Shown here: positions 684-46,965 of the stretch, one piece after another
Numbering within the stretch: position 1 is the stretch's first letter
How the letters are laid out: every line of letters begins with the position of its first letter
Origin: an uncultured Pseudomonadales bacterium
GTDB lineage: Bacteria > Patescibacteriota > Microgenomatia > UBA1400 > PJMF01
Assembly (NCBI GenBank): GCA_964633875.1
Contig: CAZWKL010000006.1
Location: 19,144-83,143 of the forward strand
DNA: 64,000 bases
Direction: 5' to 3'
The notes under the pieces: model-generated
What the model saw: the letters and a program-made list of their open reading frames with translations, nothing else
Databases searched by the model: none
Told to the model about the DNA's origin: nothing
Translations under genes and position numbers: made by a program

Positions 684-3026
684 CTACAAATTACTCCGAC
701 TAGTAATCTCCGCCTCAACCACATCTTTGTCCTGACCGTATTTCAGCCTGGAGAGCTGCCTGATCATCTCAGCCTGCTTGGGGTTCATTCGTGCTTTCAC
801 AATATCCATATCCTTATACAGCGACATACTGAACGGCGGCACCGGCTCGTTGTTGACGATGGTATTGACATAAACGTGATACTTCTCGATGTTGGTCAAG
901 TCGGACTCGTTGAAAGTGGGTGCAAACTCATGCTGGAGGAAGTTGGCATCCGGCACACCCACTCGGAAAGCCACCATGGTGCCGACGTTGCCGAAAACCG
1001 CGTTCTTCACTTCCTCATCAATTTGAGAAACAAACTGGTTGGCCACAATCAAATTCAGCCGGTATTTGCGAGCCTCAGACAAAATCACCGCAAAATCCTC
1101 AGTGGCGTAGTTCTGGAACTCGTCGACATAGAGATAAAAGTCCTTGCGCTCCGCCATCGGCATATCCTGGCGGCTCATAGCGGCGGTGAGCACTTTCGGC
1201 ACCAAAATGAGCCCCAAAAACTTGGCATCTTCTTCGCCCAAAATACCTTTGGAAAGATTGCAGAGGACAATTTTTTGCTCATCCATAGCCTGGCGAAAAC
1301 TAAAAGAGCTCTGCGGCTGGCCAATGATATTGCGCATGGTTTTGTTGGTCACAAACCGGCCAAACTTCGACACAATGTAGTCCAAAACTTCGGACTTGTG
1401 GAAATCAGAAGTCTGGGCAATTTGGTCTGTCCAGTAACGGCGCACCACCGGATCTTTGACGTAGGGCAGCAATTCATCCACGTACTTGCTGTCAGTGAGA
1501 ATACGTACTAGTTCAATAAAAGTGCTGCCCTTTTTGTACATGATCGTGAGCATGGCGTTGCGAATAGCGTGCTCAAACCGCGGACCAATAATGCCGGTGC
1601 GATGCGGATCATAGAGCTTGTACATCAGACCAATGACCGAGCTAACCACAAAATGCCGCTGCTCTTCGGTTTCAGCTTCCATCATGTTGAGTCCCATCGG
1701 CCGGACCAAGTCTGAGGGGTTGAAATAAATGACGTCATCAGCGCGCTCGGGCGGCATTAGTTGCAGAATGTCCTCGACAAACTCGCCGTGCGGATCAATG
1801 GCACAAACACCCTTGCCTGCTTCAATGTCCTGCAAAATCATCTCTTTAAGAAACTCCGACTTACCAGTACCAGTTTTACCAACAATGTACATGTGCCGGC
1901 GGCGGTCATCATCGCCGATGTAAATTTTCCGCTCTTCACCGCGATACTTTGAAGTACCAAGGTAAAGACCTGCTGTGGGGATTTCGTGCGGTGCCGGCGC
2001 GTTTTTGGCATTGAGCCACCGAATATGATGAGTTTCTACCGTTTTGTTGGGAAAGTGCATCATTGTCGCCAACTCCTCGGTGTTGAGAATAAAAGTGTTG
2101 CGACCAAAAAGCGGCATGTAGCGGTAAATAAAGTCAATCATGAATAAATGTTTGAGAAAAATCCGGCCGCTTTTGAAAGAATTATAAGCAGAAGTAAACT
2201 GAGCAAAAGCGCCTTTGAGATTATCTAAATGAGTGTCTGCCTGGAATTTTTCCGGAGCGGAAACTACCAGGCGCAAAGAAACTCTAAAACCGGGTTTGTC
2301 TAGCTTGTTGCCGATACTTTCCATTTCTTTGGGATCGTGAGAGTAGGTGGCTTTTTCGGGGTCGGCCTCGCGCTTTTTCTCATTGGCAGTATATTTTCGG
2401 CCCTTCTTTTGCCACCTGTTTCCTTCCGGTTGAAGCAAAATTTGTAAGATCGCGCCCTCGCCGTCACTCATTTTGGAAAAAGCGGAAGTGAGCAGTGACA
2501 GTCCATCGGTCGGTAAGTCTTTGTAGGTTTTGATCGGATAAAAATTGTGCTTGGCCAACTTAAGAGAAGCAAACTCAACTCGGCCTTTTTCATTAAAAAT
2601 ATTGACTTCATCTACTTCCTTAATACTGGCGTTGGGATAAGCTCCGTAGATTTGTTTTTCCACCAAATCTTGAATTTTTCTGGAACAACTGACATAAAAA
2701 GCAATGTCTTCTTTGAGAGCCACAATTTCGAAGGCAAAAATATCTTCAGCTTTGATAAATGACCAAAAACCGCCTTTTTTGAGTGAGTAAAGACCGGCGA
2801 ACATCTGCTCGGCGGCATCAATTTTGATCTCGTTGTCGCGCGGCAGTTTCACCAGCAGAGTCACAAAATTGAGGGCATACTTTTCGCGATTACGATGTTT
2901 GTACCACTGAAAAAGCATGTAGCCAAAAACGGCCAAAATAGCAGCAGCCAACAACAACATCAATAAAGACAAAAAGAGCTGCAACAGCATTTGACTAAAA
3001 TTAGTAGTAGCGAGCGTGTCAAACAT
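684..3026 (-). CDS. type IV secretion coupling-protein-like ATPase (VirD4/TraD/TrwB family)
   Basis: N-terminal TM helix; Walker A IVGKTGTGKSEF; Walker B-like LYVDEFQNY; 780 aa. Architecture matches T4SS coupling proteins (TrwB_AAD_bind-type). Confidence 0.6.
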   Translation of the reverse strand: MFDTLATTNFSQMLLQLFLSLLMLLLAAAILAVFGYMLFQWYKHRNREKYALNFVTLLVKLPRDNEIKIDAAEQMFAGLYSLKKGGFWSFIKAEDIFAFEIVALKEDIAFYVSCSRKIQDLVEKQIYGAYPNASIKEVDEVNIFNEKGRVEFASLKLAKHNFYPIKTYKDLPTDGLSLLTSAFSKMSDGEGAILQILLQPEGNRWQKKGRKYTANEKKREADPEKATYSHDPKEMESIGNKLDKPGFRVSLRLVVSAPEKFQADTHLDNLKGAFAQFTSAYNSFKSGRIFLKHLFMIDFIYRYMPLFGRNTFILNTEELATMMHFPNKTVETHHIRWLNAKNAPAPHEIPTAGLYLGTSKYRGEERKIYIGDDDRRRHMYIVGKTGTGKSEFLKEMILQDIEAGKGVCAIDPHGEFVEDILQLMPPERADDVIYFNPSDLVRPMGLNMMEAETEEQRHFVVSSVIGLMYKLYDPHRTGIIGPRFEHAIRNAMLTIMYKKGSTFIELVRILTDSKYVDELLPYVKDPVVRRYWTDQIAQTSDFHKSEVLDYIVSKFGRFVTNKTMRNIIGQPQSSFSFRQAMDEQKIVLCNLSKGILGEEDAKFLGLILVPKVLTAAMSRQDMPMAERKDFYLYVDEFQNYATEDFAVILSEARKYRLNLIVANQFVSQIDEEVKNAVFGNVGTMVAFRVGVPDANFLQHEFAPTFNESDLTNIEKYHVYVNTIVNNEPVPPFSMSLYKDMDIVKARMNPKQAEMIRQLSRLKYGQDKDVVEAEITSRSNL

Positions 3027-3044
3027 ACTTAGATTATACTTTTT

Positions 3045-3584
3045 CTAGACTTTTTCTTGCCGGTAAATAACTTTGCCAGCAAACATTTTAATGATTTTCT
3101 GACTCCATTCTACCAACCAGCGAATACTAAAGGTGTGGTTCTTTTTCAGACCGGCATCTTCGATTTCTTCGGTGATGGGCAAAACGATGACCGGCCGGCT
3201 AGGATAGGTGGCGGTATCACTTTCTTGGGTGCCGTCGGCGATGAAAATTTCCGGCGGTTTTTGGTCGGCAATATCTTCAACTTTTTGCAAGTAGCCTTCT
3301 ACTTCTACCGGTATTTCGGGGGATTTTTCCTGCTCGACGTATTGAATGGCGCCAACGTCAAACGGGCTGAGATCCGGGCTGGTGTTGGCTTCAGCAGCTT
3401 CTTTGGCGCCAGTAGAGGTTGGTGCAGGTGGATTGAGTTGAACATCGGCTTGATCGAGTGAGTCGAGTACTTGAGAAAAAAGCGCCAGTTTTTGGGTATC
3501 AGACAAATTCCCGGCACCGGGGATGGGGTTGGGGCTGGCGGGACTAGCCGTCACTGATGATGGAACTTGGGCAGCGTTGTTCAT
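3045..3584 (-). CDS. hypothetical protein (Pro/Ser-rich N-terminus), co-directional with upstream lgt and downstream coupling ATPase
   Basis: 179-aa ORF in the same operon-like minus-strand run; no motif recognised. Confidence 0.35.
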   Translation of the reverse strand: MNNAAQVPSSVTASPASPNPIPGAGNLSDTQKLALFSQVLDSLDQADVQLNPPAPTSTGAKEAAEANTSPDLSPFDVGAIQYVEQEKSPEIPVEVEGYLQKVEDIADQKPPEIFIADGTQESDTATYPSRPVIVLPITEEIEDAGLKKNHTFSIRWLVEWSQKIIKMFAGKVIYRQEKV

Positions 3585-24797: not shown

Positions 24798-24800
24798 ATT

Positions 24801-26409: not shown

Positions 26410-26831
26410 TGTTATACTATAGCTATATGTTTAAGCGCCTTGCTTTCACTTTGTTCACATTTCTCACTGCCAGTGCGTTGCTACTAAGCGTGCCGGCTCA
26501 AGCCGCCGCCCAATCGCAGGTGTGGGATGGTGTCTGCGTAGAAGAAGGAGATGTCGCTACCATCCAGGGCCTAGAGTGCTTGATTGCTAACATTTTTGCC
26601 GTGATTATCACTCTGATTGGCTTTGCCGGCTTTGTGATGTTCATTATTGGTTCTTTTCGTTGGATGCTGTCAGGTGGCAGCAGTAAAGGCGTGGAAACCG
26701 CCCGCAACACTATGACTTACGCGGTGGTGGGATTGGTAGTAGCCCTCAGTGCTTTTATTATTCTGAACCTAATTGCCGACTTTACCGGAGTAGGAGTGAT
26801 TACTAAATTTTTCATCCCCAGGTCCAATTAA
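26409..26831 (+). CDS. VirB2/TrbC-like T4SS pilin-family protein (paralog 11 of 11)
   Basis: Signal peptide; IGSFRWMLSGGSSKGVETARNTMTYAVVGLVVALSAFIIL; start overlaps the previous stop. Confidence 0.5.
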   Translation: MLYYSYMFKRLAFTLFTFLTASALLLSVPAQAAAQSQVWDGVCVEEGDVATIQGLECLIANIFAVIITLIGFAGFVMFIIGSFRWMLSGGSSKGVETARNTMTYAVVGLVVALSAFIILNLIADFTGVGVITKFFIPRSN

Positions 26832-33484: not shown

Positions 33485-36400
33485 TTACTTATTAGGATCT
33501 TGCTCCTCAATTGTGGGCTCTCTAAGCCAATTGTCATATATTGTTTTAAATTCTGGACCCCACATATTTTCAAAAGTCCTGCTCAAATCATGTGATCTGA
33601 CCTCTCTCTCATCATCAAAGAACAATCGCCACGGTCTTCCAATTGAATGCCAGCCATCTAATTGCTCAATTACTTTCTGTAACGGATGGTCTCCTTTAGA
33701 ATATACCTCTTGTGGCAAAGTGGCAGCAGAACCCAAAACTTTCTGGGCCACTTCTGCAAAGCGCTTTGCTTTAGGTTTTAAATTTTCTCTCCTAAACCTA
33801 ACACTGGGAGGAGCTCCTTCAGGAACGCCCTCGCCTAAAAGTGCCGAATATTTATTATAAATCTTTTTCAAATAGACAACACTCATTAATTGAATGGTGT
33901 TTGCAAAGGTTCTCTCTCCCTTAGGCAGACATATCCACATGCCCTTAAAATTTTTAATCCTATCAACCAACTGGCCCATTGCCGTATCTAGTTGATCAAC
34001 ACTATGAATGGTACCAAAATCACCATCAACAAATTTATCAAATTCTCGAATTTCTTCCTGCATGGTCCTAAACTGATAATATGTGGGGACATCTTTCATC
34101 TTTTCTCCACGCCATTGGCCATTAATCCAGTCCCAAAGTGTAGGTTGAAATTTCAGATCTTCATGAAGTTGAACATAATCAATGCCATATGGAGAGAAGT
34201 CTGCAATCATCCGATTTCTTACCATAACAAACGTTTCTAGATTCTTAACGCTTTTATTACTGCTTTTCTTCTCCCTCTCCGTTGAGTTTGGTGGCTCCAT
34301 AGCCGCATATATGGAGCGCTCATACACCACCTCAGTTGCACTAAACTTTTCCTTCAACGGGGAAAACGTTTTGTTCATCCAACTTCTAAACCCGGACGGC
34401 AATCCTGAAGGAATAGGGAGACTGTACCTAGTAATAGAAGAAACCTTTTCTGGTAACCGAGTAACCATTGAATAAACTCTGTATTTGGGAAGCGAGGCGC
34501 CTGATTGAGCCTTATAAAGTATGGCTGCCATTGGTGAAGCATCAGCCGAAGCGGTTGCATCAAAACCAGGAACGGGTGATCCTTGATACATTGCGTATTC
34601 AGGAATATATGCATCAGATCTCATTTCAGACACAACTACAAAACGCCTCATAGCCAACTTGATGAAGTCTGGAAAATGGGCTAATTCCGGAAACTCTCGC
34701 TCTAAAACTTGATTAATAGTAAACACTCCATTTGGGTTGGTGTGTTCATCATAGACCAAATTACCTGTTGGATTACCTTTTGCAGCGTAATTCCAGTGTC
34801 TATCTTTCTCATCCTGAACATCAGCGTCGTGTTTCCTACTTCTTGTAAAAGGCCCATTGAAAAGTTCATTTCTGAGAAAATCCACAACTTCTTTAATATT
34901 AATTTTGTGTTCAACTCCCAATTTGTCTTTTATAGCAAAATCACCAAAGTGCCGAAACTTTCGGAGATGATCCATTAGAATAAATGATCCCGCCGCTTCT
35001 CTGGCTTTTGTGACATCTGCCCACGCCAACAGCGCTGGCCAGTCACTCCCTCCAGCCTCATCAACGGCATCGCGAAGAAGAATGGAGATATCAAGAAGCT
35101 CTCTTTCTTCTTCATTATTAAAATGCTCCTTGGCAATGCGCTTCATTGCGTCAACAGCATCGGTAACTTTGTTGTCTCCCCTAGTTCCACGCATTTTGTC
35201 GTTGTCTTCTAACATCTGCCAAAGCTCATCCATCTTTTTTATTTGATCCGTTTTCAAAACTTCGCTTTTAGCAGTTTCAATTGCTTCATTGATTCTCCTT
35301 ACTGCTTCACCATAACGTCCTCCAAGCTTGGTGGGACCAACAAGTTTTTCGATTGCGTCAGTGGTAGAACTATGACTGTAATTGGTTTGATCAAGATAGC
35401 CAGCAGCATCTATTGCTTTATAAGCATTTTCAAGGTTAGTTTTGAGAGCCTCTAAATCATCTTTTTCGTGCGCCCCGGGAGCAGAGCTATGAGGCGCAAT
35501 GTTATTAAGGTCTATTGCCTCAACCTTCTCAATTTCATCCACAAAGAGTTTAACATCCGCATTCCACTGATCAGTTTCTTTTTTAGCCTCAGCTTCTTCT
35601 TTCTTTTTGTCAATCTCCTTCAGCAAGGAGCGCATTTTTTCCAACAAATCTTCTGCCTGTCTTGAAGCATTTCTTAAGGCAACTAGTCTATTTACTTGTT
35701 CTGAATTTATTCTTTCGTTGGCATGCTCAACATGAATATTTACCAGTTCTTGCAGATGAACGATTTTGTCAATATTAGTATTTAAGTCCGCCTCAATAGC
35801 ATTAATTCTAGCCTGACTCACAGAGTAATCCAGTCCCCTCAGCTCAGTTTCATATGCGGCTATTCTGGGATTTTCTAATGCCATGAGCTCCAACAACTCG
35901 GTTAAATATTTTGGCGGCCAATCGTTATCATCCTCGGCTTTGGGTGGTTGTTCTGGTGGGGGAGGTTGTTGCGGAGGTTGCTCCTGACCGCCTTGGGCTT
36001 TCTTCTCAGCCTGCCCTAGATAAAAAAGTCGTTGCTCACGAAGTTTTTTTACTAAAGCGCTGGCGAAATTTGAGGGCAATACATCTCTTTTTTCAACATA
36101 GTACTCCTGAGCAATTTCGCGTAGCCTTTCAATTGCTATCTCTTCAGGATTATCGCCCAATAAATCAAGGTCATATTCGTGACGAAGATTTACAACTTTT
36201 TCTCGGACAGAGCGAATTATTTGCTCAGGAGTGCTGTTTTCTTCTTCTGCCTTCGGTTCAGCCTCTTCATTGATGGGTTGCTGTTCTTTTTCCGAATCGT
36301 CTTCTTCCATCTCGGCCCCACCGAGTGGCTCTTCCCCAATTTCAGTTTCTGGTTCTGTTTGAGGCTCATCTTCAAGAGCAGATGCTTCGTCGTGAAGATC

Positions 36401-36628
36401 TCCTAAGTCTATTGAGTCAGTTACAGCAAAAAAGTTTGCATTGTCTTTGAGAAACTTTTCAGCTGCTGCTATTGCTTTAAGCGCGGCGGATTTTTTTTGA
36501 TCTTTAATAAGCTGTTTGACCTCTTCCACATAAGCATCAAACTCGACAGAAGGATTAGAAAATTCAACAGGTTCATTGTCAGGCTGAATATCAGGCTGAT
36601 GGTCGGGACGAGGTTGTTCGGACATCAA
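33485..36628 (-). CDS. large acidic coiled-coil protein of unknown function (1047 aa)
   Basis: Long uninterrupted ORF with an E/D-rich N-terminus, a PPQQPPPPEQPP tract and extended helical regions; no enzymatic motif seen. Confidence 0.4.
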   Translation of the reverse strand: MMSEQPRPDHQPDIQPDNEPVEFSNPSVEFDAYVEEVKQLIKDQKKSAALKAIAAAEKFLKDNANFFAVTDSIDLGDLHDEASALEDEPQTEPETEIGEEPLGGAEMEEDDSEKEQQPINEEAEPKAEEENSTPEQIIRSVREKVVNLRHEYDLDLLGDNPEEIAIERLREIAQEYYVEKRDVLPSNFASALVKKLREQRLFYLGQAEKKAQGGQEQPPQQPPPPEQPPKAEDDNDWPPKYLTELLELMALENPRIAAYETELRGLDYSVSQARINAIEADLNTNIDKIVHLQELVNIHVEHANERINSEQVNRLVALRNASRQAEDLLEKMRSLLKEIDKKKEEAEAKKETDQWNADVKLFVDEIEKVEAIDLNNIAPHSSAPGAHEKDDLEALKTNLENAYKAIDAAGYLDQTNYSHSSTTDAIEKLVGPTKLGGRYGEAVRRINEAIETAKSEVLKTDQIKKMDELWQMLEDNDKMRGTRGDNKVTDAVDAMKRIAKEHFNNEEERELLDISILLRDAVDEAGGSDWPALLAWADVTKAREAAGSFILMDHLRKFRHFGDFAIKDKLGVEHKINIKEVVDFLRNELFNGPFTRSRKHDADVQDEKDRHWNYAAKGNPTGNLVYDEHTNPNGVFTINQVLEREFPELAHFPDFIKLAMRRFVVVSEMRSDAYIPEYAMYQGSPVPGFDATASADASPMAAILYKAQSGASLPKYRVYSMVTRLPEKVSSITRYSLPIPSGLPSGFRSWMNKTFSPLKEKFSATEVVYERSIYAAMEPPNSTEREKKSSNKSVKNLETFVMVRNRMIADFSPYGIDYVQLHEDLKFQPTLWDWINGQWRGEKMKDVPTYYQFRTMQEEIREFDKFVDGDFGTIHSVDQLDTAMGQLVDRIKNFKGMWICLPKGERTFANTIQLMSVVYLKKIYNKYSALLGEGVPEGAPPSVRFRRENLKPKAKRFAEVAQKVLGSAATLPQEVYSKGDHPLQKVIEQLDGWHSIGRPWRLFFDDEREVRSHDLSRTFENMWGPEFKTIYDNWLREPTIEEQDPNK

Positions 36629-36719: not shown

Positions 36720-39700
36720 ATGGCTAATGCGGACGCACCTGCTCTACCCTTAACCAAACTCGAGAATGTAAAATACTTCAAGACCGACGTTTCTCCAGAG
36801 GATTTTAAGGAATTTCTCACCACCCTCCCTCAAGCCATTTCCGGCAGTGGCGAACTGCAAAAAGGGGTGAAGGTTTTTGTACCAGGCAACGAAAAATTTA
36901 ACAGCAGAAAACTTGAGGCCGCTGACGATTCTGATTTGGTTTCAGAAGAACACAGTGCTGAAGCGCTTTATTATTCCGATATCGTCCGGCTCATTTCCGA
37001 CTCGATGAGATGGCTCATGGAAAATGGCACTCATGAAGAAATTGGGAACTTAAGAGACCGGTTTGACCACCTAAACAGAAATCCCAACGCCATCTTAACC
37101 CAGTGGGGAGGGGTTAAGGCTGGTGGCGAAAGCGCTGTTTCCGAAATAGAAATTCAGAAATTTAGAGGTGACATTCCGGAGCTGATCAACTATGTTTTGT
37201 ATTTTGCCAAAAAAGAGTTTAGCGACCTGGCTACGGAGCCATCGGAAAAAGATGGGGCGGCAGCGGCTCCAGGGAAACCGGCTAAAGGCGATGATCAGGC
37301 TGTCGTTGGGGGAAAGCCAGAGGCAGACGGAGGGGCTGATCAAGCTGGCTCAGCAGAGCCGGATGAGCAACGCCCTCAACCTCCCAGTCCGGAACAAGAA
37401 GAAGCCCACAAGAAAAAAATCCTCTACGAAGCCACCTGGATCTACAACCAGGCGCTGCACGATTTTTTCATCACTCACGGCATTGATTACGACTATCTCG
37501 AAACTCACCCAGAGTTGCGCGATCTAATTCTCTCCGAAACTGTCAAAATCCTGGAAAGCCGCTCCGAGCGCGAGCTGATGATTCTTTTCGCCAACCCAGG
37601 CAGAAGGTTGGAAATACTCAGAGAGCTTTACATCAACCTGGCCCAATCGCCGCAACTTGCCGTTGGCTTGCAAAATTTTTACGACACCTACGCGCAAGCG
37701 CTACCCGAGGAGGCTCGCCAGGAATTTCTGGCTAGCTTGTCCCGCTCTGAAAACGTTCTTTCCCAGGCCATTCAAGGCAAAATGGTTTCCAACGATTACC
37801 AACTGCGCCAACAAGTCGCGGCAGTTTTGGGCACCGACAGCCCCACCTTGATTGGCGTGGGTTCATCGGAGTTCACCCAAATTATGGGCTCGATTCAGAT
37901 TAATATTGATGCGCTCCTAATCGGTCAGGGTGTTGATTTCCTGATAGTTAGCTCTGATGGAAACGTCGAAAAGACTAGCGAAAATCCCCACAACGCCATT
38001 TGGCTGATTCAAAAAATGAGCGATGACCATTTGCTGTTGATGCTCGGTGTTCCTCCCGATATCCGTCTTTCCGCGGAAGCAGTAGAGCGGTTGAGAAAAA
38101 TCGTCATCAATTACGCCAGAATGAGGGCGATTTATCTGGCTGAGCGCGCGGAAAATCTGGCGATTGCCGAGGGAATCAATCCGCTGAATGAGGCAGATGC
38201 TAATGCTATCGCCGCCAATGACACGGTCACTGCCAAGCGAGCACTACTAGCGCCTCATCAAGATACGGCTGGATTAATCAAGGCAGAAGAAGACTCGGGA
38301 AATGGCGGCGAAGTCGTTTATGGAGCTTTAACCCAAAATATTAAACAGCTTGAGGCCAAACGGCAAGCTCAATGGCACTCACTTTCCAAGGAAGAACAAG
38401 AGCTCATCCTGGTATTTTTGGGCAAAGAAATTGGGGCAGAGTATTACGAAGTCCCTTTTGAAATCGGGCTGTTTAGACTGCAAGCGCTGATAGCTGAAGC
38501 TGAAAAAACCGCGGTTTCACAGGCAGAACTGCTCAAATACCAGGCAACCTCACAAGCGATGATGAGTGAGGCTTTGTACGCCTTTGCCTACGAACAAGAA
38601 ATTGCTGCTAGGCAGGAGTTTCTGCGCCAGGAAATTTTAGGAGAGTACTTCGCCGCCGTTGATGAAGCAGAGCTGGCTGCCATGGCTGAAGAACTTGACT
38701 ACGAGAATGAGGCGCAACTCTATGAAGAAAGTCTGAGTAATGTTGTGCGCGCTCATGAAGGTGCGGGAGAGCGAGCTGAGGCAGGAGCAGCGGGCGGGCG
38801 TTTCGGCAGGTTGGGAAGAATCGGCGATCGTTTTAGAAACCGGTTTGCAAAAGAAGGCCGCTTTTCTCCAAAACAAAAGTTGCTTGGTGCTATTAAAAAA
38901 ACCGGAGCTAGAAAACTGGGCAGTGCGGCGGCTCAAAAACTAGGTGGTTTGATCGGTGGCCCAGTGGGCGCGGCGCTTGCCAAAGCGCTAACAGGAAAAA
39001 ACAGAAAGTGGGTGGGTGGCGCTCTGGCTGGAGCCGGGTTGTTGGCCTTAAAAGGCCTTGCCGCGATGTTGCAGGGCGGTAAAGCCTTGCTGATTGGCTT
39101 GGGAGCTGGCGGCGCTACTGGGGGAGCGCTGTTGTTGTTGGGTTTAACCGGGCCGGTTGGAGCGGTGATCCTTGGTGTTGGTGCGGGTTTAGCTGCCGCT
39201 GGCGGGTATAGTTTATTGAGCGGAGCTGGAACCGCAGAAGGAGCGGCCGGTCTTGGCGGCGGTGGCTTGATTGGAGGAGCGGGCGGAGTTCCGCCTGCCG
39301 CTTACACCGCTATGCCAGCAGAAGCTGTAAGTGGCGCGGAGGCCACAACTGGCGGCGCGGCGGCGGCCGCTATCACCACAACTACCGCTACAGCCGCCGG
39401 CGCCGCCAGTTGGACTACAGTCGCTAGCTTCCCCACTGCGGTCTTAATTCCCATTTTAAGCCTAGCGCTGACAGCAGTAGCCAGCCTCATCGTCATCCTC
39501 ATCATCCAAGGCTCCTTCCTCATCACCCTGCCGCCGTCTCTTAGTAGCAGAACTTACACCAGCAACTTGAGCGGTTTTGAGGGCTGTTGGCCCACCACCG
39601 GCAGAATAACTTCATATCGCACCTACATGATCGGTGGTGGTGGTAGCAACCATGCCACTGTGGGTGCTGGTAAGTACTTACATGGCTACGAGGGTCCGGG

Positions 39701-40940
39701 TATTGCCTTGGACATTGGCGCCGGAGGCAATTCTGAGGCTGAGGGCGGCTCTAATCCGCCGGTTTTCTCTCCTTTTTCGGGGACGGCCACTTTTTATCCT
39801 GAAGGGACCGGAGTGTATTGTGCCAGCTGCGCTCATAAATATCCCTACGGTAATTACGTGGTGGTAGACACGGGTGATTTTGCTCTGATTTTTGCTCATC
39901 TACTGCATTTTCCGGACCCAAACGTTCAATACCCCATTGTTGGCACCAATCAGATGACCTCTATCAGTTGGACGCAAAAAACGGAAAACGTTCAAATTAC
40001 GGCGGGCAATCTTCTAGGACTGATGAACAGCACCGGCAACTCCACCGGCAATCATCTTCACTATGAAGTAGTGGGTGGTGGTGTGGATATTATTGATCTG
40101 GTTCCGCTAACAGACGCAGAAAAAGCTGAGGCTAAAGCAGATGAATACACAATTTTTGGCATGCGAGTCAATTCACAAGAGTGTTCCCGTGCAAATGTTG
40201 ATGAAGAAGAAGGCATTTCTGGCTACATCGCTATTGGCCCTCAGAATCCCGACAACTTAGTGGTAACTCCTTCCAGCATGTTCCAAAGTCCGGTTCATCC
40301 TTGCACTTGGTTTGATCAAAATCAAAACTTGGCCGTGGCAATTAATGCCAATTATTACAATAGCTCGTCTGAGCCAATTGGCCCTGCCGGCAGTGATCCG
40401 GTTAGATATCTAGCCAATGCCAATGACAGATCTTCAGCCTACATGTCGGAGACAATGCGCTATCTTGGGGTGACTACCGGCGGCGCCTTGCAGTTTGGAC
40501 CAGTGCCTCCCGCTTGGTACAACAATCCCAACAAGCCTTTTAATATCGACAGCTTGACTAAAGCCATTACCGGAACACTTTCCACCCATCCCGATGATAA
40601 CCAATTTAGAAATCGGGTGGCCCTTGGTTTTGGGAGCGTTAATGGCCAGTGCACTGATTACAGCGGACCAGCCTTTATTGTTGGCGGCATGCGGGCCGCT
40701 TCTTATTCTGATTTAGCAAAAATGATGACCGCTTGTGGCGCTGAAGAGTTCATCTTCCTGGATGGCGGCGGCTCCGCTTCTTTCTGCTCTGAAAATCTCA
40801 ATATTACCGGCAGTAGAGTCATGCCGGTGAGCGTGGGCTTGATTCAAGCCGAAGTAGAAACCTACAGCTCGAACGAAGAAGAAGAGGGCGTAGGTATTCA
40901 ACCTCCTCCCGGCGGTTTCCCTGGGCCACAACCAATTTAG
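36720..40940 (+). CDS. giant envelope hydrolase: N-terminal helical region, Gly/Ala-rich TM segment, M23 (LytM) metallopeptidase domain, C-terminal phosphodiester glycosidase-like domain
   Basis: M23 motifs HxxxD...GNSTGNHLHYEV; C-terminal FIFLDGGGSASF resembles the LDGGGS motif of phosphodiester glycosidase (DUF2233-like). The ORF-track start 36702 is a TTG overlapping TATAAT (36708-36713); the ATG at 36720 is preferred. Confidence 0.55.
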   Translation: MANADAPALPLTKLENVKYFKTDVSPEDFKEFLTTLPQAISGSGELQKGVKVFVPGNEKFNSRKLEAADDSDLVSEEHSAEALYYSDIVRLISDSMRWLMENGTHEEIGNLRDRFDHLNRNPNAILTQWGGVKAGGESAVSEIEIQKFRGDIPELINYVLYFAKKEFSDLATEPSEKDGAAAAPGKPAKGDDQAVVGGKPEADGGADQAGSAEPDEQRPQPPSPEQEEAHKKKILYEATWIYNQALHDFFITHGIDYDYLETHPELRDLILSETVKILESRSERELMILFANPGRRLEILRELYINLAQSPQLAVGLQNFYDTYAQALPEEARQEFLASLSRSENVLSQAIQGKMVSNDYQLRQQVAAVLGTDSPTLIGVGSSEFTQIMGSIQINIDALLIGQGVDFLIVSSDGNVEKTSENPHNAIWLIQKMSDDHLLLMLGVPPDIRLSAEAVERLRKIVINYARMRAIYLAERAENLAIAEGINPLNEADANAIAANDTVTAKRALLAPHQDTAGLIKAEEDSGNGGEVVYGALTQNIKQLEAKRQAQWHSLSKEEQELILVFLGKEIGAEYYEVPFEIGLFRLQALIAEAEKTAVSQAELLKYQATSQAMMSEALYAFAYEQEIAARQEFLRQEILGEYFAAVDEAELAAMAEELDYENEAQLYEESLSNVVRAHEGAGERAEAGAAGGRFGRLGRIGDRFRNRFAKEGRFSPKQKLLGAIKKTGARKLGSAAAQKLGGLIGGPVGAALAKALTGKNRKWVGGALAGAGLLALKGLAAMLQGGKALLIGLGAGGATGGALLLLGLTGPVGAVILGVGAGLAAAGGYSLLSGAGTAEGAAGLGGGGLIGGAGGVPPAAYTAMPAEAVSGAEATTGGAAAAAITTTTATAAGAASWTTVASFPTAVLIPILSLALTAVASLIVILIIQGSFLITLPPSLSSRTYTSNLSGFEGCWPTTGRITSYRTYMIGGGGSNHATVGAGKYLHGYEGPGIALDIGAGGNSEAEGGSNPPVFSPFSGTATFYPEGTGVYCASCAHKYPYGNYVVVDTGDFALIFAHLLHFPDPNVQYPIVGTNQMTSISWTQKTENVQITAGNLLGLMNSTGNSTGNHLHYEVVGGGVDIIDLVPLTDAEKAEAKADEYTIFGMRVNSQECSRANVDEEEGISGYIAIGPQNPDNLVVTPSSMFQSPVHPCTWFDQNQNLAVAINANYYNSSSEPIGPAGSDPVRYLANANDRSSAYMSETMRYLGVTTGGALQFGPVPPAWYNNPNKPFNIDSLTKAITGTLSTHPDDNQFRNRVALGFGSVNGQCTDYSGPAFIVGGMRAASYSDLAKMMTACGAEEFIFLDGGGSASFCSENLNITGSRVMPVSVGLIQAEVETYSSNEEEEGVGIQPPPGGFPGPQPI

Positions 40941-41016: not shown

Positions 41017-42141
41017 ATGGACTTCGAAAACCCAGAATACCAGCAAGGCTTCCCTGAGCCGCCGCCGCCAAAGCCGCCGGGTAAGTTCGAGAGGCGCGCC
41101 CAGGCTACGGCCACTTTCATCCGCCAGCACGCCTTCAAAATTTTTCTGGTTTTGCTGGCGGCGGCGCTGATAATTTCCGCCATCATTGCCGCTCTCACCC
41201 CCACCTTGCCAGAGGCAATCCCTACTCCGCTCAATCCCATCAGCTCAGGAGTAGCAGATTCGCCCACCGGTATGCGGGTGAGCTTTCAGAATCCCAACCC
41301 CAACCTCCCCGATAAGCTGCCCATTCATCAAGCCACCTCCAGAGTGCAAAGCTCAGAGCAAGTCATCGCCAATCTCTCCAGTCAAATGGATATTCCCAAA
41401 GACCCTTCGCCCTATTCCAACAATATTTGGACTAATTTTGCCACCAGCGAACAACTTCTACTCCATCCGCAAAGCGGCAAAATCACTTACCTGGCCGGAA
41501 CAGATGAGGAGGAGTTTTTGCCCGAAACAGAAGGCGCCAATAATTTAAATGAGCCCTTCAATGTTGACGAGGCCATCAGCATCGCGGAAGAATTTATTGG
41601 CAAATTGTCGAATTTTTCCGGTCTAACCGCTCAGCGCCACAGTGTTGCTTATCTAGGGGATGAGGGCGAGCTGGAAATCAGCGTTGGTGCTAAAGTTATT
41701 TCCATTCCCTTTGTCTTCAACCTCAGCAATTATCCTGTTTATTTTTCGGGAGAAAGAGAGGCTTACGTCACCATTCAAATCAATAAAAATTATCAAATCA
41801 ATAAGGCCGATTTTTATCCGCCGCCACCCAACACCCAGGTGGTTTCAGAAAAAATTATCATTTCTTTAGATGAAGCCAGCCAATTAATCGCGGCTGGCCA
41901 GGCCACTGTCATCGCGGCCGGCAGTAGCACGGGGGTTTTTGACGTCAAAACAATTAACAATCTGAGGATCACCGACACTCAACTTGAGTATCGTCTCAAC
42001 CCGGAAAATCAGCTTATTATTCCTTATTTCCGTTTTGAAGCAGAGGGAAGCGCAGCCAATCAAAGCGCCCAAACGCCGCCCACCAACCTCACCCTTATTC
42101 TCCCTGCGATTCCCACCCTCGAACCCACCACCCTCAACTAG
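41017..42141 (+). CDS. bitopic membrane protein (short cytoplasmic N-term, one TM, ~300-aa ectodomain); VirB8-like topology
   Basis: Single TM helix FKIFLVLLAAALIISAIIAAL after a Pro-rich N-terminus. VirB8-likeness is inferred from topology and gene context only. Confidence 0.3.
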   Translation: MDFENPEYQQGFPEPPPPKPPGKFERRAQATATFIRQHAFKIFLVLLAAALIISAIIAALTPTLPEAIPTPLNPISSGVADSPTGMRVSFQNPNPNLPDKLPIHQATSRVQSSEQVIANLSSQMDIPKDPSPYSNNIWTNFATSEQLLLHPQSGKITYLAGTDEEEFLPETEGANNLNEPFNVDEAISIAEEFIGKLSNFSGLTAQRHSVAYLGDEGELEISVGAKVISIPFVFNLSNYPVYFSGEREAYVTIQINKNYQINKADFYPPPPNTQVVSEKIIISLDEASQLIAAGQATVIAAGSSTGVFDVKTINNLRITDTQLEYRLNPENQLIIPYFRFEAEGSAANQSAQTPPTNLTLILPAIPTLEPTTLN

Positions 42142-42194: not shown

Positions 42195-43460
42195 ATGAGA
42201 GAACACCCAATCCCTCAGGATATTACCAACTACCGCTTTCATATTATCGGCAGCATGACGCTCAAACAATTTGCGGAGATTTTTTTGGGTGTAATTGCTG
42301 CGATTATAATTTACAGCACCAACCTGCCTGACGTTATTAAATGGCCGCTGATTGCTATTTCGGTGGGACTGGGCGCGGCGGCGGCTTTTGTGCCAATTGA
42401 AGAAAGGCCCCTTGATCACTGGATTATTACTTTTTTCAGAGTGCTTTACAAACCCACTCGCTTTTTTTGGAAACGCGAACCACACATTCCCGAGCCTTTT
42501 GCTTATGTTCCGCGCAGTGATCAGCAAAATCTCGAACCGGAACTTGATTTAACCCCAGCAAAACGAGCTCGAATTAAAGAATACATCACTTCCGTTAACA
42601 CTCCATCTGAATACCAAACCGACCTGACTGACTGGGAAACCAACAGAATGCAGCAAATTACGGAAATTTTTAGCACCGAGCTGGTCGCGACACCACCGGC
42701 CACAGTTAAAAAACAAATACCGCAAGTCAAACCAAACATCACCGTGAGAGTTCGCAGCCTTAGAAGCGGCTCCGTTTCAGCTGACGGCCAGACAAATCAA
42801 ACAAGCCAAGTAAGTCAAACAGGCCAAACCAATCAAGAAAATCAACCAGACAGCGCTGACAATCAAGCCGAAGAAATCACCATCTACGCCAACACCACTA
42901 TTCAACAAGCCCCGCCGTTGGAAGCGCCGCAACCAACCTCGCAACCAACCTCACCGCCGGAAACGCCACCGGCAGAACAAAAACCAGAGGGCACCAACTA
43001 TCCGGAAAGGGTTGGTAACATCCCCAGGGTTTCTCAGCCGCAAATTGAATCACCACCAGAGGCCGAGCCTCAAGAACAGGCCGTGGAAGAAGCGCGGCCA
43101 GCCTACGCCTATGTACAAAACCAGGCAATGGCGCCAAAAGAAGAAAGGCAAACCAGCGGCGCGGCCTTTAACCTCGATCTGCCCTTTCCCGATCCTCCCA
43201 CAGAGCCAAACAAAATTGTGGGCATGGTACAAACTCCCAACAACGAACTTATCACCAGTGCTATCGTAGAAATCCAGACGGAGTCCGGCCAAATTGTTCG
43301 GGCGGTTAAAACCAATGCCCTTGGTCAATTTTTCATCACCACTCCGCTTAACAATGGAACTTATGTGGTATCGGTAGAAAAAGACGGCTATACTTTTGTC
43401 CCGCAAAAAATTGTATTATCAGGCGAGCCGGTTGCTCCTCTGGAATTTAGGAGCACATAG
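42195..43460 (+). CDS. PrgI/VirB3-like membrane protein fused to low-complexity linker and C-terminal carboxypeptidase-regulatory-like beta-sandwich
   Basis: The N-terminus IPQDITNYRFHIIGSMTLKQFAEIFLGVIAAIIIY with two TM helices matches the PrgI-family pattern. C-terminal segment VGMVQTPNNELITSAIVEIQTESGQIVRAVKTNALGQFFI...GTYVVSVEKDGYTF. Confidence 0.45.
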   Translation: MREHPIPQDITNYRFHIIGSMTLKQFAEIFLGVIAAIIIYSTNLPDVIKWPLIAISVGLGAAAAFVPIEERPLDHWIITFFRVLYKPTRFFWKREPHIPEPFAYVPRSDQQNLEPELDLTPAKRARIKEYITSVNTPSEYQTDLTDWETNRMQQITEIFSTELVATPPATVKKQIPQVKPNITVRVRSLRSGSVSADGQTNQTSQVSQTGQTNQENQPDSADNQAEEITIYANTTIQQAPPLEAPQPTSQPTSPPETPPAEQKPEGTNYPERVGNIPRVSQPQIESPPEAEPQEQAVEEARPAYAYVQNQAMAPKEERQTSGAAFNLDLPFPDPPTEPNKIVGMVQTPNNELITSAIVEIQTESGQIVRAVKTNALGQFFITTPLNNGTYVVSVEKDGYTFVPQKIVLSGEPVAPLEFRST

Positions 43461-43499: not shown

Positions 43500-44807
43500 G
43501 TGAGCATGGCTGATAACAACTCTCAATCAACTACACAAGAATTTCTAGACATTCATGATATTACCAACGATCTGGTAATTATGAAGGATGGCACCACCTC
43601 GTTGGTGCTCACCGTTGATGCCATGAACTTTGGGCTGCTGGCTGAAGAAGAGCAAGACAGCATTATTTATGCTTATGCTGGCTTGTTGAATTCGCTCAAC
43701 TACCCCATTCAAGTACTGGTGAAATCGCAAACCAAAGACGTCACTTCTTATCTCAGGCTTTTGGAAGAGCAGGAAATGCAAGCCAACACACCGGAAAATC
43801 GCCAGCGTATCCGTCGCTACCGCGAGTTTGTGGCCAACCTTATTCATGAGCGTAATGTTTTGGACAAAAAGTTTTATGTAGTTATTCCCGCTTCGCCGCT
43901 GGAACTGGGTTTGCTTACCGCCGATAGCGTTATTCCAGGCAGACAAACTTTTGATGTTACCAGCGTGGAAAGAAGTGTTTTGTTGGAAAAAGCTAAAAAC
44001 ATTCTGGAGCCAAAGCGCGATCATCTCATTTCTCAGTTTGCCAGAATTGGTTTGTTTTCCAGACAGCTCGCCACTCAAGAAATCATTCAGTACTTTTATA
44101 CCAGTTATAATCCTGAGGCTTCAGAAGGTCAGGAAATTGCCGACAGCAACAGTTATTCGACTCCACTAGTAAAAGCTAGCTTTGAAGGATTTGCTATGCA
44201 GCAAAGCGATTCAACCAACACTAATTTGCAACAGCCGGGAACACCAGAGGTGGCGCCTCAAATGCCGCCGACTTCGCAAGAGCCGATTTTACCGCAAGAG
44301 CCGGAGGTGGCGCCGGAGCCGCCACCAGAGCCAGTGGCCGAAGCTCCCGTGATTCCAACTGAGCCTGTTGCTCCTACTGAGCCAACCGCGCCGCCAGCGG
44401 AGCCTCAGCCCGCAATTGAAGCGCCGCCAATTCTAACTGGGCTGATGATGGAACCACCACCACCTGTTGAGTCGCCCGTCGTGCCGGCTGTTCCAACCGC
44501 TCCCACTCTGCCCACCGAGCCAGTTTTGCCAACCGCTCCCACTCTGCCCACCGAGCCGGTAGTTCCGCCCAACAGCAACCTGCTCGATCTGGGATCAGAC
44601 CAAGCAACGCCAGGCATTCCTGTGGAAAATAATGTTGAGTTACAAAAAGCCCCGTTAGATGCTGACGTGGCCGCGCCGGAACAAACTGCTCCTCCAGTCG
44701 CTCCTCAAACAGAACCGCAGCCATCCGAGGACCAGGCAAGCTCAGCAAGTTCAGAAAATGAAGAGGGCGGCGGCAACACCCCGCCGCCAATCGCGGAAAT
44801 TCAGTAG
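43500..44807 (+). CDS. hypothetical protein with Pro-rich tandem-repeat C-terminal half
   Basis: N-terminal ~230-aa globular region; C-terminal PEPV/PTEP repeats (PTAPTLPTEPV twice). Confidence 0.4.
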   Translation: MSMADNNSQSTTQEFLDIHDITNDLVIMKDGTTSLVLTVDAMNFGLLAEEEQDSIIYAYAGLLNSLNYPIQVLVKSQTKDVTSYLRLLEEQEMQANTPENRQRIRRYREFVANLIHERNVLDKKFYVVIPASPLELGLLTADSVIPGRQTFDVTSVERSVLLEKAKNILEPKRDHLISQFARIGLFSRQLATQEIIQYFYTSYNPEASEGQEIADSNSYSTPLVKASFEGFAMQQSDSTNTNLQQPGTPEVAPQMPPTSQEPILPQEPEVAPEPPPEPVAEAPVIPTEPVAPTEPTAPPAEPQPAIEAPPILTGLMMEPPPPVESPVVPAVPTAPTLPTEPVLPTAPTLPTEPVVPPNSNLLDLGSDQATPGIPVENNVELQKAPLDADVAAPEQTAPPVAPQTEPQPSEDQASSASSENEEGGGNTPPPIAEIQ

Positions 44808-44901
44808 ACCCCAAGTCCGGGTCTCAGGTTTGGGCAGAAGCAAACTTGGCTTTTAAGGCCGGTCTTTATCAGTCCGTGCAATTAAAGTACAATGTCAATT
44901 G

Positions 44902-46965
44902 ATGTCGAATTTGCTGTCCAACCTACCACTACCTTTCGGAAAGAAAAAGTCCGCCAACAACGCGGACGGGACTAGCGAAACCGATTACGAGCAACGCAAC
45001 CTAGAAAAGCTCAAAGAGTTCTCTCGCGGCCTGGTCACCATTCAAGATATTATTGCCCCCGAAGCAATTGAGGTGGATTTCACCTACCAAAAAATCAATT
45101 CCACCTACACTAGAACTTTGTTTGTGGCCGGCTATCCGCGTGCGGTTCCGGCCAACTGGCTCTCGCCGTTGATCAATTTCCCCTGGCAACTGGCGGTTTC
45201 CATGTTTATTTTTCCGGTTGATTCCGCCGAAATTCTCGACAACCTCAAGCGGAAAATCACAGAAATGGAAGCGGAAATTCAATCAGATCTTCGCTCGGGC
45301 AAAATCAGCAACATCAACACCGAGGTCAAGCTTGAAGACGCCCGCTTTATCCGTGAGGAATTGGCCAAAGGCAGTGAACGCTTTTACCAATTTGGCCTCT
45401 ATGTTACTCTTCAGGCTCAAAACAAAGACGATCTCGACAGAGTTACCAAAGCGGTGCAGTCTTCGCTGGGCTCGCTGTTGATCGTCTCAAAAAAAGCCAC
45501 CCTCCAGATGGATGAGGGCTTCAAAACCACCCTGCCTATGGGCACCGACAAGCTACTGGTCACACGTAACATGGACACCACCTCGCTGGCCACCACTTTT
45601 CCTTTCACTTCTTCTGAGCTAACCATGGAAACCGGCATCATGTACGGCATCAACGAGCATAACGATTCGCTGGTTATTTTTGACCGTTTCAAAATGGAAA
45701 ACGCCAACATGGTGATTTTTGCCAAGTCTGGTGCGGGTAAGTCTTACACGGTTAAACTGGAAATTCTCCGCCAGCTGATGTTTGGCGCCGAAGTGCTGGT
45801 GATGGACCCAGAGCATGAGTATGAAGAACTGACCAAGGCTGTGGGCGGCGAGTATATCAATTTCACCTTTGATTCAAACACCAAGATCAACCCCTTCGAC
45901 CTCTCCAACCTTTACGAAGAAGGAGAAAATGAACTGGGTCAGAAAATTATTTCGCTGCACGGACTGCTTAAAGTGATGTTGGGCAGCATGACGCCGCAGC
46001 AAGACGCCATGCTGGACCGGGCGCTGGTGGCTGCTTACAAAGCCAAAGGTATTACTCCTGATCCAGCCACCCAAACCAACGAGCCGCCGCTGATGGAAGA
46101 TGTTTACAAGGCTCTGATTGGCATGGAGGACAAGGACGCCGACGACATCGCCGTGCGCCTGGAAAAATTCATCACCGGCTCGTTTCGCGGCATCTTTGAC
46201 CAGCCGTCCAATCTCGACATTCGAAACCAACTAACAGTTTTTTCCGTCAAGGAAATGGAAGAAGATCTCCGCCCGATAGCCATGTATATTATTTTAGACT
46301 TCATCTGGACCAGAATTAAAAAAGATCTCAAAAGGCGCATTTTGGTGGTTGATGAGGCTTGGTATTTCATGAAGCATCAAGATTCTGCTTCTTTTCTGCA
46401 CTCAATGGTGAAGCGGGCCAGAAAATACTATCTTGGTATTACCACCATTACTCAGGATGTAGAAGACTTTTTACACAACGACTACGGCCGGGCCATCGTC
46501 ACTAACGCCTCTATTCAGTTTTTGATGAAGCAGTCTACCGCCTCCATTCCGATTTTGGCCGAAACCTTTTATCTCTCACAGGGTGAAAGGCAGCTATTGG
46601 TCACTTCAGACATTGGTGAGGGCATTTTCTTTTCCGGTCAAAACCACGTGGCCATGCGGGTTGTCGCCAGTCAAGAAGAACATGATTTAATCACCACCAA
46701 CCCCGAGGAAATTTTGAGGCGCCGGCAAGAGCAGCAGGCCCGGGCGGCTCAAGGGCTAAATGACAGCGGCAACCCGCCTCAAAACTCTCGGCCGGCACCT
46801 TTTCAGGCGGCTCAGGGCGGATTAATGGGAGGAAATCAGGAGCAATCGCCAGCTCAAAACGATCGGCCTGCACCCGAATCAGAGCCTTCCAGACAATCTC
46901 CGCGCCAGGCTGGCTCTCACACCATCGAAGATTACACCGCGCCAACAACTCGAAGTGAAGATTGA
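44902..46965 (+). CDS. VirB4/TrbE/PrgJ-like T4SS ATPase
   Basis: N-domain ...RTLFVAGYPRAVPANWLSPLINF...; Walker A FAKSGAGKSY; Walker B ILVVDEAWYF; 688 aa. ATG lies 8 nt after TACAAT (44888-44893). Confidence 0.75.
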   Translation: MSNLLSNLPLPFGKKKSANNADGTSETDYEQRNLEKLKEFSRGLVTIQDIIAPEAIEVDFTYQKINSTYTRTLFVAGYPRAVPANWLSPLINFPWQLAVSMFIFPVDSAEILDNLKRKITEMEAEIQSDLRSGKISNINTEVKLEDARFIREELAKGSERFYQFGLYVTLQAQNKDDLDRVTKAVQSSLGSLLIVSKKATLQMDEGFKTTLPMGTDKLLVTRNMDTTSLATTFPFTSSELTMETGIMYGINEHNDSLVIFDRFKMENANMVIFAKSGAGKSYTVKLEILRQLMFGAEVLVMDPEHEYEELTKAVGGEYINFTFDSNTKINPFDLSNLYEEGENELGQKIISLHGLLKVMLGSMTPQQDAMLDRALVAAYKAKGITPDPATQTNEPPLMEDVYKALIGMEDKDADDIAVRLEKFITGSFRGIFDQPSNLDIRNQLTVFSVKEMEEDLRPIAMYIILDFIWTRIKKDLKRRILVVDEAWYFMKHQDSASFLHSMVKRARKYYLGITTITQDVEDFLHNDYGRAIVTNASIQFLMKQSTASIPILAETFYLSQGERQLLVTSDIGEGIFFSGQNHVAMRVVASQEEHDLITTNPEEILRRRQEQQARAAQGLNDSGNPPQNSRPAPFQAAQGGLMGGNQEQSPAQNDRPAPESEPSRQSPRQAGSHTIEDYTAPTTRSED

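Follow-up and report, generated by a model that had tools for sequence, protein, structure and literature searches.

The window analysed here, a 64-kb stretch of contig CAZWKL010000006.1 (NCBI GenBank assembly GCA_964633875.1, positions 19,144 to 83,143), was deposited under the name of an uncultured Pseudomonadales bacterium and is placed by GTDB in the Microgenomatia of the Patescibacteriota. It contains about 55 genes, among them those of a type IV secretion system (T4SS) whose core lies directly before dnaA. We consider it probable that this is a core, vertically inherited patescibacterial T4SS, descended from the monoderm conjugation machinery of the MPF-FATA type, fixed at the replication origin and no longer used for self-transfer. 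The system and its interpretation, which we regard as correct, were already published between 2023 and 2025. The window is a clean and complete example with the full 24-kb gene order, from a class without cultivated members, and not a new kind of system. Among type IV systems, only that of Patescibacteria has been reported as essential for its carrier to survive, and it is central to the way in which a large proportion of uncultivated bacteria exploit their hosts.

A T4SS cluster next to dnaA

The genes from 22575 to 46965 form a near-uninterrupted 24-kb cluster, which stops 150 bp short of dnaA (47116), itself on the same strand as the VirB4 gene (Table 1). An earlier, sequence-only reading of this DNA had described a dispersed apparatus interleaved with housekeeping genes. 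"Dispersed" is overstated, as the 22.5-47 kb segment is contiguous, conserved in order and ends at dnaA. Furthermore, dnaA, dnaN, rpmH, rnpA and yidC flank the cluster, and interleaving holds only for the coupling ATPase and two pilin-domain genes, the sole parts outside the 24-kb core, which are set off from it by housekeeping genes. Because the upstream half is also order-conserved in relatives, the 22.5-47 kb segment is a single cluster, and the three large unassigned genes inside it belong to it. All the components listed by the earlier reading are indeed present, within a few codons of where it had placed them or exactly there; the TrsD-like protein was absent from its list.

Pfam profiles were scanned against 58 open reading frames (ORFs) of the window. 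The VirB4 ATPase scores 383.9 bits on the CD1110 VirB4 family of NCBIfam (NF045971, cut-off 325), matches P-loop_TraG (84 bits) and AAA_10 (54 bits) in Pfam, and aligns with the Thermoanaerobacter VirB4 structure 4ag5 in the PDB at 1.9e-45, which bears out the original VirB4 call. It has at least 8000 homologues, the best 120 of which share 75-100% identity, and the closest plasmid-borne VirB4s come from Bacillota and Actinomycetota (29-36% identity). Judged by these matches, it is the MPF-FATA-related VirB4 that characterizes the chromosomal T4SS of Patescibacteria.

About 230 aa at the N-terminus of the adjacent TrsD-like protein form a conserved domain, and the Pro-rich tail behind it varies in length. 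The protein matches the NCBIfam TrsD family NF041427 at 1.5e-5, below its cut-off, and the N-terminal region (98-235) of the mycoplasma VirB4 family NF045975 at 2e-7, and the public gene call carries a precomputed Pfam hit to PF26593 (TraC-like). Its gene adjoins VirB4 in 74 of 80 loci (see below), with a median identity of 61%, and the protein is 31% identical (E 1e-21) to the product of the gene 5′ of a Bacillota (Pontibacillus) VirB4. An hhalign comparison of the TrsD-like and VirB4 families was not significant (probability 0.8%), and the TrsD assignment therefore rests on the NCBIfam and precomputed Pfam hits. Next to it, the PrgI/VirB3-like protein, found in 71 of the 80 loci, reaches 27.2 bits on Pfam PrgI (cut-off 27) over residues 5-88 and is predicted to form a hairpin of two transmembrane helices, in agreement with the earlier assignment. 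As far as profile matches can tell, the window thus has TrsD-like and PrgI/VirB3-like genes beside virB4, as in other patescibacterial chromosomal T4SS. The C-terminus of the PrgI/VirB3-like protein is a CarboxypepD_reg beta-sandwich (34.3 bits), joined to the hairpin via a low-complexity linker of about 240 residues. This layout is unusual for VirB3-type proteins, and the homologues range from 209 to 622 aa.

The polytopic protein encoded at 31605-33464 has a signal peptide, then an N-domain outside the cell, some seven transmembrane helices and finally a tail rich in Gly. In Foldseek searches TrwI chains occupy ranks 2-7 (probability 0.91-0.98, with E only about 0.1), so that the helical VirB6/TrwI fold is found, and we retain the VirB6 assignment of the earlier reading with moderate confidence. 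The family is large, with more than 3000 clusters at 50% identity. In Pfam and NCBIfam scans of a sample of 37 members, 16 match NF045889, a Mycoplasma transmembrane family of integrative and conjugative elements (ICEs), the best at 1.8e-7 and the window protein at 1.3e-3, all below cut-off; one matches the pLS20 p028 family, and one matches Pfam TrbL_5, a scan in which the window protein has no match. A profile search of the family against PDB sequences returned nothing. One member matches a "CPR-type pilus protein PamT", which we discarded as noise, Pam pili being an unrelated Ig-fold donor-strand-exchange system.

The 374-aa bitopic protein has one transmembrane helix (residues 35-53) followed by extracytoplasmic alpha/beta domains, the VirB8-like topology that had been noticed. 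Its topology and position would fit a VirB8-type scaffold, which does not establish the VirB8 label. The predicted model has a pLDDT of 74 and derives from a seven-sequence alignment; homologue searches gave three and six proteins only, and PDB sequences searched with a profile yielded no relevant match.

The putative wall hydrolase is 1406 aa long from the ATG at 36720, and the 1412 aa reported earlier correspond to the maximal ORF from 36702. Its N-terminal part, about 790 aa long, is cytoplasmic. A membrane segment rich in Gly and Ala comes near residue 800 (transmembrane segments lie at 795-934, and no signal peptide is predicted), and outside the cell there are an M23-like and, after it, a NAGPA-like domain. 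The gene is there as proposed, with an M23 match that is partial and below the cut-off. An HLH motif is present, the M23 structure 9gy1 of the PDB aligns at 5e-4 over 40 residues, and the NAGPA match (23 bits) is partial and sub-threshold. The gene is conserved upstream of VirB4 in 35-39 of the 80 loci.

At the other end of the cluster stands the pilin array. Each of its proteins starts with a signal or N-terminal segment and contains two hydrophobic helices plus a loop of GGDxxK type. Eight of the nine ORFs match PF18895 (T4SS_pilin), seven of them reaching the cut-off of 26.6 bits, and the ninth (23389-23955) aligns with them as a paralogue, with 48% identity to its neighbour in the core; the array as originally described is thus confirmed. 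Outside it, the protein of 17368-18561 starts with a signal peptide and has some 300 extracellular residues before a VirB2-like pilin domain at its C-terminus (PF18895 25.3 bits; NF045849, the Mbov_0395 pilin-like family, 3e-5), and the protein of 18558-19133 ends in a similar domain (PF18895 24.8 bits, again sub-cut-off). Both align with the array pilins. The 11 pilin-domain ORFs share a common two-helix core at a mean pairwise identity of 27% (range 13-75), and six of them, including five array pilins, match NF045849 below its cut-off. A nine-gene array occupies the same place in a relative. A search with one pilin against all plasmids by tblastn gave no match. By these sequence comparisons, the window has the divergent tandem VirB2-like array known from patescibacterial chromosomal T4SS. 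Upstream of the first pilin gene lies an ECF-type sigma factor gene, an adjacency that is not conserved: in one relative the array abuts an amino-acid kinase gene instead.

Three large genes of the cluster remain unassigned. The 1142-aa protein is Cys-rich with an N-terminal hydrophobic, signal-like segment, and a counterpart of about 1170-1220 aa stands at the same position in relatives. It has no Pfam match and no informative PDB match, and its homologue in one relative has a weak GH5/cellulase match; it is a candidate surface or effector protein. The 326-aa protein, with faint DHH-type NCBIfam matches only, corresponds to a gene of about 300 aa at the same position and orientation in relatives. 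The 1047-aa protein, for which neither a family nor a PDB match was found, likewise keeps its position and orientation, as a gene of about 1000-1500 aa.

Conserved location and mobility

How stable is this cluster? With one genome taken per species, 80 VirB4 loci were compared, counting genes within 10 kb of VirB4; contig ends and divergence lower these counts. VirB4 identity is 70-93% across the 80 species-representative genomes. On one strand, the order hydrolase, bitopic protein, PrgI, TrsD-like, VirB4, dnaA, dnaN, rnpA, yidC, jag, rnhA is kept in most of them. VirB4 itself being present in all 80, the hydrolase is found in 35 loci, the bitopic protein in 43, PrgI-like in 71 and TrsD-like in 74, and on the downstream side dnaA in 76, dnaN in 69, yidC in 62, jag and rnhA in 59 each, and the gene for a DUF4012 protein in 57. 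Look-ups through VirB6-like homologues gave the upstream order in relatives: the pilin array (nine genes), the ~1150-aa gene, the reverse ~300-aa gene, the VirB6-like gene, the reverse ~1000-aa gene and the hydrolase. The chromosomal location is therefore conserved and origin-proximal, with synteny in 57-76 of the 80 species-level loci.

The titles of these loci read Patescibacteria, Pacebacteria, Woesebacteria or Microgenomates, and the nearest relatives are labelled Pacebacteria, Woesebacteria or Microgenomates. Many public metagenome-assembled genomes that carry the locus are recorded as "uncultured Pseudomonadales bacterium", and one record bears the name TM6 or Limisphaerales; the taxonomy in these titles seems to be wrong.

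No relaxase, integrase or transposase family was found in the 58 ORFs scanned, as the sequence-only reading had held, nor in the precomputed Pfam hits of the genes in the ~10 kb past the right end of the window. There is no tRNA in the window and no island-like GC break. Long flanking direct repeats are absent: the sizeable repeats are the pilin paralogues, and the others, imperfect and of 19-43 nt, do not bracket the cluster. In the stretch examined and in the relatives compared, the marks of a self-transmissible ICE or plasmid are thus missing, be it a relaxase, an integrase with att repeats and a tRNA site, or a variable location and patchy distribution. An ICE, recognizable by a relaxase or integrase with att repeats, is one of the two findings that would have overturned the earlier reading, and none was detected in the window. 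The other, ATPases turning out to be FtsK/HerA paralogues, did not materialize either, the best matches being to VirB4 and to coupling proteins. Because VirB4 is 70-93% identical and the VirB4-dnaA-dnaN-yidC block keeps its order in most of the 80 loci, we view the apparatus as a vertically inherited core machine and not as a mobile one. The proposal of a chromosomally fixed machine, as opposed to a conjugative element, is upheld by the same identity and order and by the lack of element boundaries.

The cumulative GC skew, computed in 2-kb windows that are too coarse for exact origin placement, is lowest at 46-48 kb, which agrees with an origin near dnaA. DnaA boxes show no clear enrichment (21 observed against 13.4 expected, a number reached in 2 of 100 shuffles). 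The T4SS core genes and dnaA (36702-48738) are all on the plus strand, left of the skew minimum; if the origin lies in the dnaA-dnaN gap, they would be transcribed head-on to the replication fork. On the downstream side, the DUF4012 protein (52886-55849, 987 aa) has one transmembrane helix, and its gene stands 3′ of rnhA in the relatives that carry it.

Table 1. Genes of the T4SS and of its surroundings in the window
Feature	Coordinates	Strand	Basis or remark
VirD4-like coupling ATPase, paralogue 1	684..3026	-	Pfam, PDB
179-aa protein, possible coupling ATPase partner (membership uncertain)	3045..3584	-	60/74 related loci
Housekeeping run	3-22.5 kb		lgt, GH3, MFS transporter, pth, GT2, ATP-dependent DNA ligase, Fic, recF, SpoIID, uppS, amino-acid kinase, Nudix, ECF sigma factor
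397-aa pilin-domain protein, outside array	17368..18561	+	PF18895 sub-cut-off
191-aa pilin-domain protein, outside array	18558..19133	+	PF18895 sub-cut-off
ECF-type sigma factor	21951-22535	-	divergent from first pilin gene, 40 bp
Nine tandem VirB2-like pilin genes	22575..26831	+	PF18895
1142-aa Cys-rich protein	27070..30498	+	conserved position
326-aa cytoplasmic protein	30507..31487	-	conserved position
VirB6-like polytopic membrane protein	31605..33464	+	topology, fold
1047-aa acidic cytoplasmic protein	33485..36628	-	conserved position
1406-aa putative wall hydrolase, VirB1 role	36720..40940	+	partial M23, NAGPA
374-aa bitopic protein	41017..42141	+	topology
PrgI/VirB3-like protein	42195..43460	+	PrgI Pfam
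TrsD-like protein	43500..44807	+	NCBIfam, PF26593
VirB4 ATPase, MPF-FATA CD1110/CTn2 type	44902..46965	+	NF045971, 4ag5
dnaA, landmark and not a component	47116..48738	+	Bac_DnaA 228 bits
Order 3′ of dnaA			dnaN, rpmH (50212-50346), rnpA, yidD-like ORF, yidC, jag, rnhA, DUF4012 protein, L25, leuS

Function, coupling ATPases and alternative readings

According to transposon sequencing, Southlakia epibionticum needs the homologous cluster, including its pilins, for epibiotic growth (PMC10633639). For the machine of the window we envisage the following operation. The PrgI/VirB3 hairpin and the VirB6-like protein would anchor VirB4 and the TrsD-like protein at the membrane, while the bitopic protein and the M23/NAGPA-like hydrolase would scaffold the channel and open the peptidoglycan. 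The VirB2-like pilins, inserted by the Sec pathway, would be pulled from the membrane by VirB4 and polymerised into a short pilus or conduit contacting the host bacterium, the 11 divergent pilin genes presumably providing variant or minor subunits. Protein, or less likely nucleic acid, would then be moved across the epibiont-host interface. The two remote VirD4-family paralogues may recruit the substrates, and their participation is the least certain step.

The coupling ATPase is predicted to have one N-terminal transmembrane helix, after which come an N-terminal domain of some 300 aa and a P-loop domain, with Walker A and B motifs GKTGTGKS and DEFQN. Over residues 374-687 it matches TrwB_AAD_bind (PF10412) at 31.7 bits (cut-off 20.5; profile positions 13-308 of 387), and its only PDB matches below 0.01 are DotL (5.7e-6) and TrwB (8e-4). 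The leading NCBIfam matches are TraD, TrbC, CD1115 VirD4-like and CedD, every one far under its cut-off. The VirD4/TrwB-like designation is thereby supported at the superfamily level: as its profile matches indicate, the protein is a member of the VirD4 superfamily and of none of the curated families. Over 74 metagenome contigs it is mostly 65-82% identical (the weakest 33-52%) and keeps a neighbourhood of its own, composed of the 179-aa ORF, lgt, GH3, MFS, pth, ligase and Fic genes. The ATP-dependent DNA ligase, of archaeal/eukaryotic type, and the Fic-domain protein are encoded side by side at 9747-12722 on the minus strand, and both are kept near the coupling ATPase in relatives. The 179-aa protein, encoded directly upstream of the ATPase in the same orientation and next to it in 60 of the 74 related loci, has no Pfam or NCBIfam match and may be its dedicated partner. 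A second VirD4-family paralogue (678 aa, 34% identity, N-terminal DUF8128) is encoded beside a radA-like gene about 5 kb to the right of the window (equivalent to about 67.3-69.3 kb in window numbering, minus strand), so that coupling-protein genes stand on both sides of the origin region.

Several points weigh against our interpretation. The coupling ATPase gene is 19.5 kb from the pilin array and 42 kb from VirB4, its best curated scores (SXT_TraD 43.7 against a cut-off of 366, CD1115 37.2 against 250) leave it outside the curated coupling families, and its homologue in S. epibionticum was reported to be non-essential (PMC12102498). The search for a relaxase extended over about 74 kb of the genome. 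The hydrolase reaches 26.3 bits on Peptidase_M23, under the cut-off of 28.7, and the match spans residues 1094-1127 and profile positions 58-91 of 96, short of a full M23 domain; the best fold matches of the modelled bitopic protein are of the YycI/YycH type and lend no support to a VirB8 role. The essentiality data come from the Saccharimonadia, another class (PMC10633639), no VirB2-type pilus has been seen on these cells, and the filaments solved so far on a bacterium of the candidate phyla radiation are the unrelated Pam pili (bioRxiv 10.64898/2026.03.03.709456).

Some of these points have led us to consider that the 684-3026 ATPase stands outside the T4SS, as a housekeeping translocase of the FtsK/HerA superfamily that has been exapted, leaving a T4SS without a coupling protein, as in Bordetella Ptl or Brucella VirB. 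This is a real possibility, towards which we do not lean. Besides its distance from VirB4, its separately conserved lgt, pth and ligase neighbourhood and its scores under all curated coupling cut-offs, the protein scores slightly higher on DUF87/HerA (34 bits) than on TrwB and has only one predicted N-terminal transmembrane helix, the S. epibionticum homologue was reported as non-essential, and exaptation has been proposed (PMC12102498). However, the families and PDB structures that the protein matches best are without exception coupling proteins (TraD, TrbC, CD1115, DotL, TrwB), the TrwB_AAD_bind alignment covers most of the profile, and coupling genes often lie far from virB4 in bona fide systems (PMC12102498).

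Could the machine nevertheless still transfer DNA, either with an unrecognised relaxase encoded elsewhere or without one, as in the chromosomal transfer of mycoplasmas, with the VirD4-family ATPases as DNA coupling proteins? The two strongly conserved coupling paralogues that flank the origin region, one of them beside the radA-like gene, would suit such a role, as would the closest plasmid-borne VirB4s, which belong to conjugative-type families. Moreover, the pilin, VirB6 and VirB4 families match the CDS15/16/17-type families of the Mycoplasma ICE, all three of which are needed for ICEA transfer (PMC6030558). We nonetheless judge DNA transfer unlikely. No relaxase was seen in the window or its right flank, relaxases are rare in Patescibacteria (109 in 103 genomes; PMC12102498), and the cluster is syntenic with dnaA across species and not mobile; furthermore, a conjugation system is not expected to be essential, and the essentiality of the S. 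epibionticum T4SS is independent of ComEC-mediated DNA uptake (PMC12857230). A machine for DNA import, like Helicobacter ComB or archaeal Ced, scavenging host nucleic acid for a cell unable to make nucleotides, seems to us very unlikely. Patescibacteria do lack nucleotide synthesis (PMC10633639), and VirB4 and the coupling ATPase have weak NCBIfam matches to CedB (53 bits) and CedD (32 bits), respectively, but these are far under the 600-700 bit cut-offs of the Ced families and weaker than the matches to conjugative families. In S. epibionticum, transformation needs type IV pili and ComEC, and deletion of comEC leaves viability intact, whereas the T4SS is essential (PMC12857230). Finally, the MPF-FATA ancestry together with the lack of a relaxase or integrase might evoke an integrated conjugative element in decay, of which a functionless remnant is left. 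To this we give hardly any credence: all ORFs are intact, VirB4 (70-93%) and the TrsD-like protein (61%) are conserved across 74-80 species in a conserved gene order, and S. epibionticum cannot do without the homologous cluster (PMC10633639).

Relation to known systems

An essential T4SS with essential pilins, without recognisable coupling or relaxase protein and closest to Gram-positive conjugative systems, was described in S. epibionticum by Wang et al. 2023 in Cell (PMC10633639). The phylum survey of Quinonero-Coronel et al. 2025 in Microbial Genomics (PMC12102498), whose points are repeated by a 2025 FEMS review (PMC12857230), then reported an MPF-FATA-related VirB4 clade with TrsD and PrgI beside virB4, VirB2 arrays of 2-11 genes with about 25% mean identity, above all in Microgenomatia and Saccharimonadia, coupling-protein genes that are for the most part distant from virB4, relaxases in no more than 103 genomes, and T4SS near dnaA, dnaN, rnpA and rpmH. 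In that survey VirB6 homologues are scarce in Microgenomatia and VirB8 nearly absent, and VirB2-like pilins are regarded as absent from MPF-FATA systems.

The window agrees with S. epibionticum (SEML1_0006-0019) and the patescibacterial T4SS at large in its VirB4 of MPF-FATA ancestry, the adjacent TrsD-like and PrgI/VirB3-like genes, the VirB6-like gene, a peptidase or glycosidase other than VirB1 in the place of VirB1, the missing relaxase, the coupling ATPase far from virB4, the divergent pilin array (mean identity 27% here, about 25% reported) and the adjacent dnaA, dnaN, rpmH and rnpA. In contrast to S. epibionticum, the genome is of the Pacebacteria/Woesebacteria type and not of the Saccharimonadia, the cluster sits 5′ of dnaA, with transcription running towards this gene, the hydrolase gene is upstream and not downstream of virB4, and nine array pilin genes replace six. 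Compared with the 2025 survey, the VirB6 homologue of the window is too divergent for the published hidden Markov models (HMMs) and was recognised by its fold. What we add is this fold-level VirB6 call in a class where that HMM survey found VirB6 scarce, a conserved bitopic candidate, and pilin-like relatives in elements of Bacillota and Mollicutes, which bear on the origin of the pilins.

With the MPF-FATA systems of Bacillota (CTn2/CD1110, pCF10 Prg, pGO1 Trs, pIP501 Tra) the cluster shares the CD1110 VirB4, TrsD and PrgI homologues, a large multidomain wall hydrolase and a monoderm architecture without VirB7, VirB9 and VirB10. Unlike them, it has no relaxase, integrase or adhesin, it has VirB2-like pilins, its coupling ATPase is remote and divergent, and it is not mobile but has a fixed chromosomal place with synteny across species. 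The Mycoplasma ICE (ICEA/ICEB CDS15-16-17; Mbov_0395/0396/0397) is also a minimal monoderm machine, and the pilins, the VirB6-like protein and VirB4 (with the N-terminal region represented by the TrsD-like protein) each match one of its families. All these matches except that of VirB4 are weak and sub-cut-off, and VirB4 scores higher on the clostridial CD1110 family; moreover, the Mycoplasma elements are mobile through a DDE recombinase and lack a wall hydrolase. The pilins and the VirB6-like family repeatedly gave sub-threshold matches to the CDS15/CDS16-type NCBIfams NF045849, NF045889 and NF045848.

A further relative lies on an 898-kb replicon of Pontibacillus sp. ALD_SL1 (NZ_CP062975.1, 351-361 kb), in the order two pilin-like genes (one of the Mbov_0395 family), a 780-aa hypothetical protein, a small protein, TrsD-like, VirB4 and M23. 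The TrsD-like protein is the one mentioned above (31% identity, E 1e-21), the CD1110-family VirB4 is 36% identical to ours and the closest plasmid-borne one, and the M23 protein is a 1051-aa DD-metalloendopeptidase. The annotation shows no relaxase within 12 kb, and typing classes the replicon as non-mobilizable. It differs from the window in its Bacillota host, in having two pilin-like genes and not nine, in the hydrolase downstream of VirB4, and in not being located by dnaA. VirB2-like pilins may thus not be unique to Patescibacteria among monoderm T4SS; the pilin link to Pontibacillus rests on profile hits, because tblastn of one pilin against all plasmids found nothing.

Pushed further, the comparison would make the pilin-VirB6-TrsD-VirB4-M23 module an unrecognised subclass of monoderm MPF-FATA T4SS, pilus-bearing and relaxase-less, which did not arise in the candidate phyla radiation, is also present on non-mobilizable Bacillota replicons (Pontibacillus) and is related to the CDS15-17 core of the Mollicutes ICE. 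We hold this to be rather doubtful. If it were true, the VirB2-like pilins would be ancestral to the monoderm lineage and not co-opted from diderm systems, and the conserved coupling paralogues could still carry nucleic acid between the epibiont and its host with no relaxase involved.

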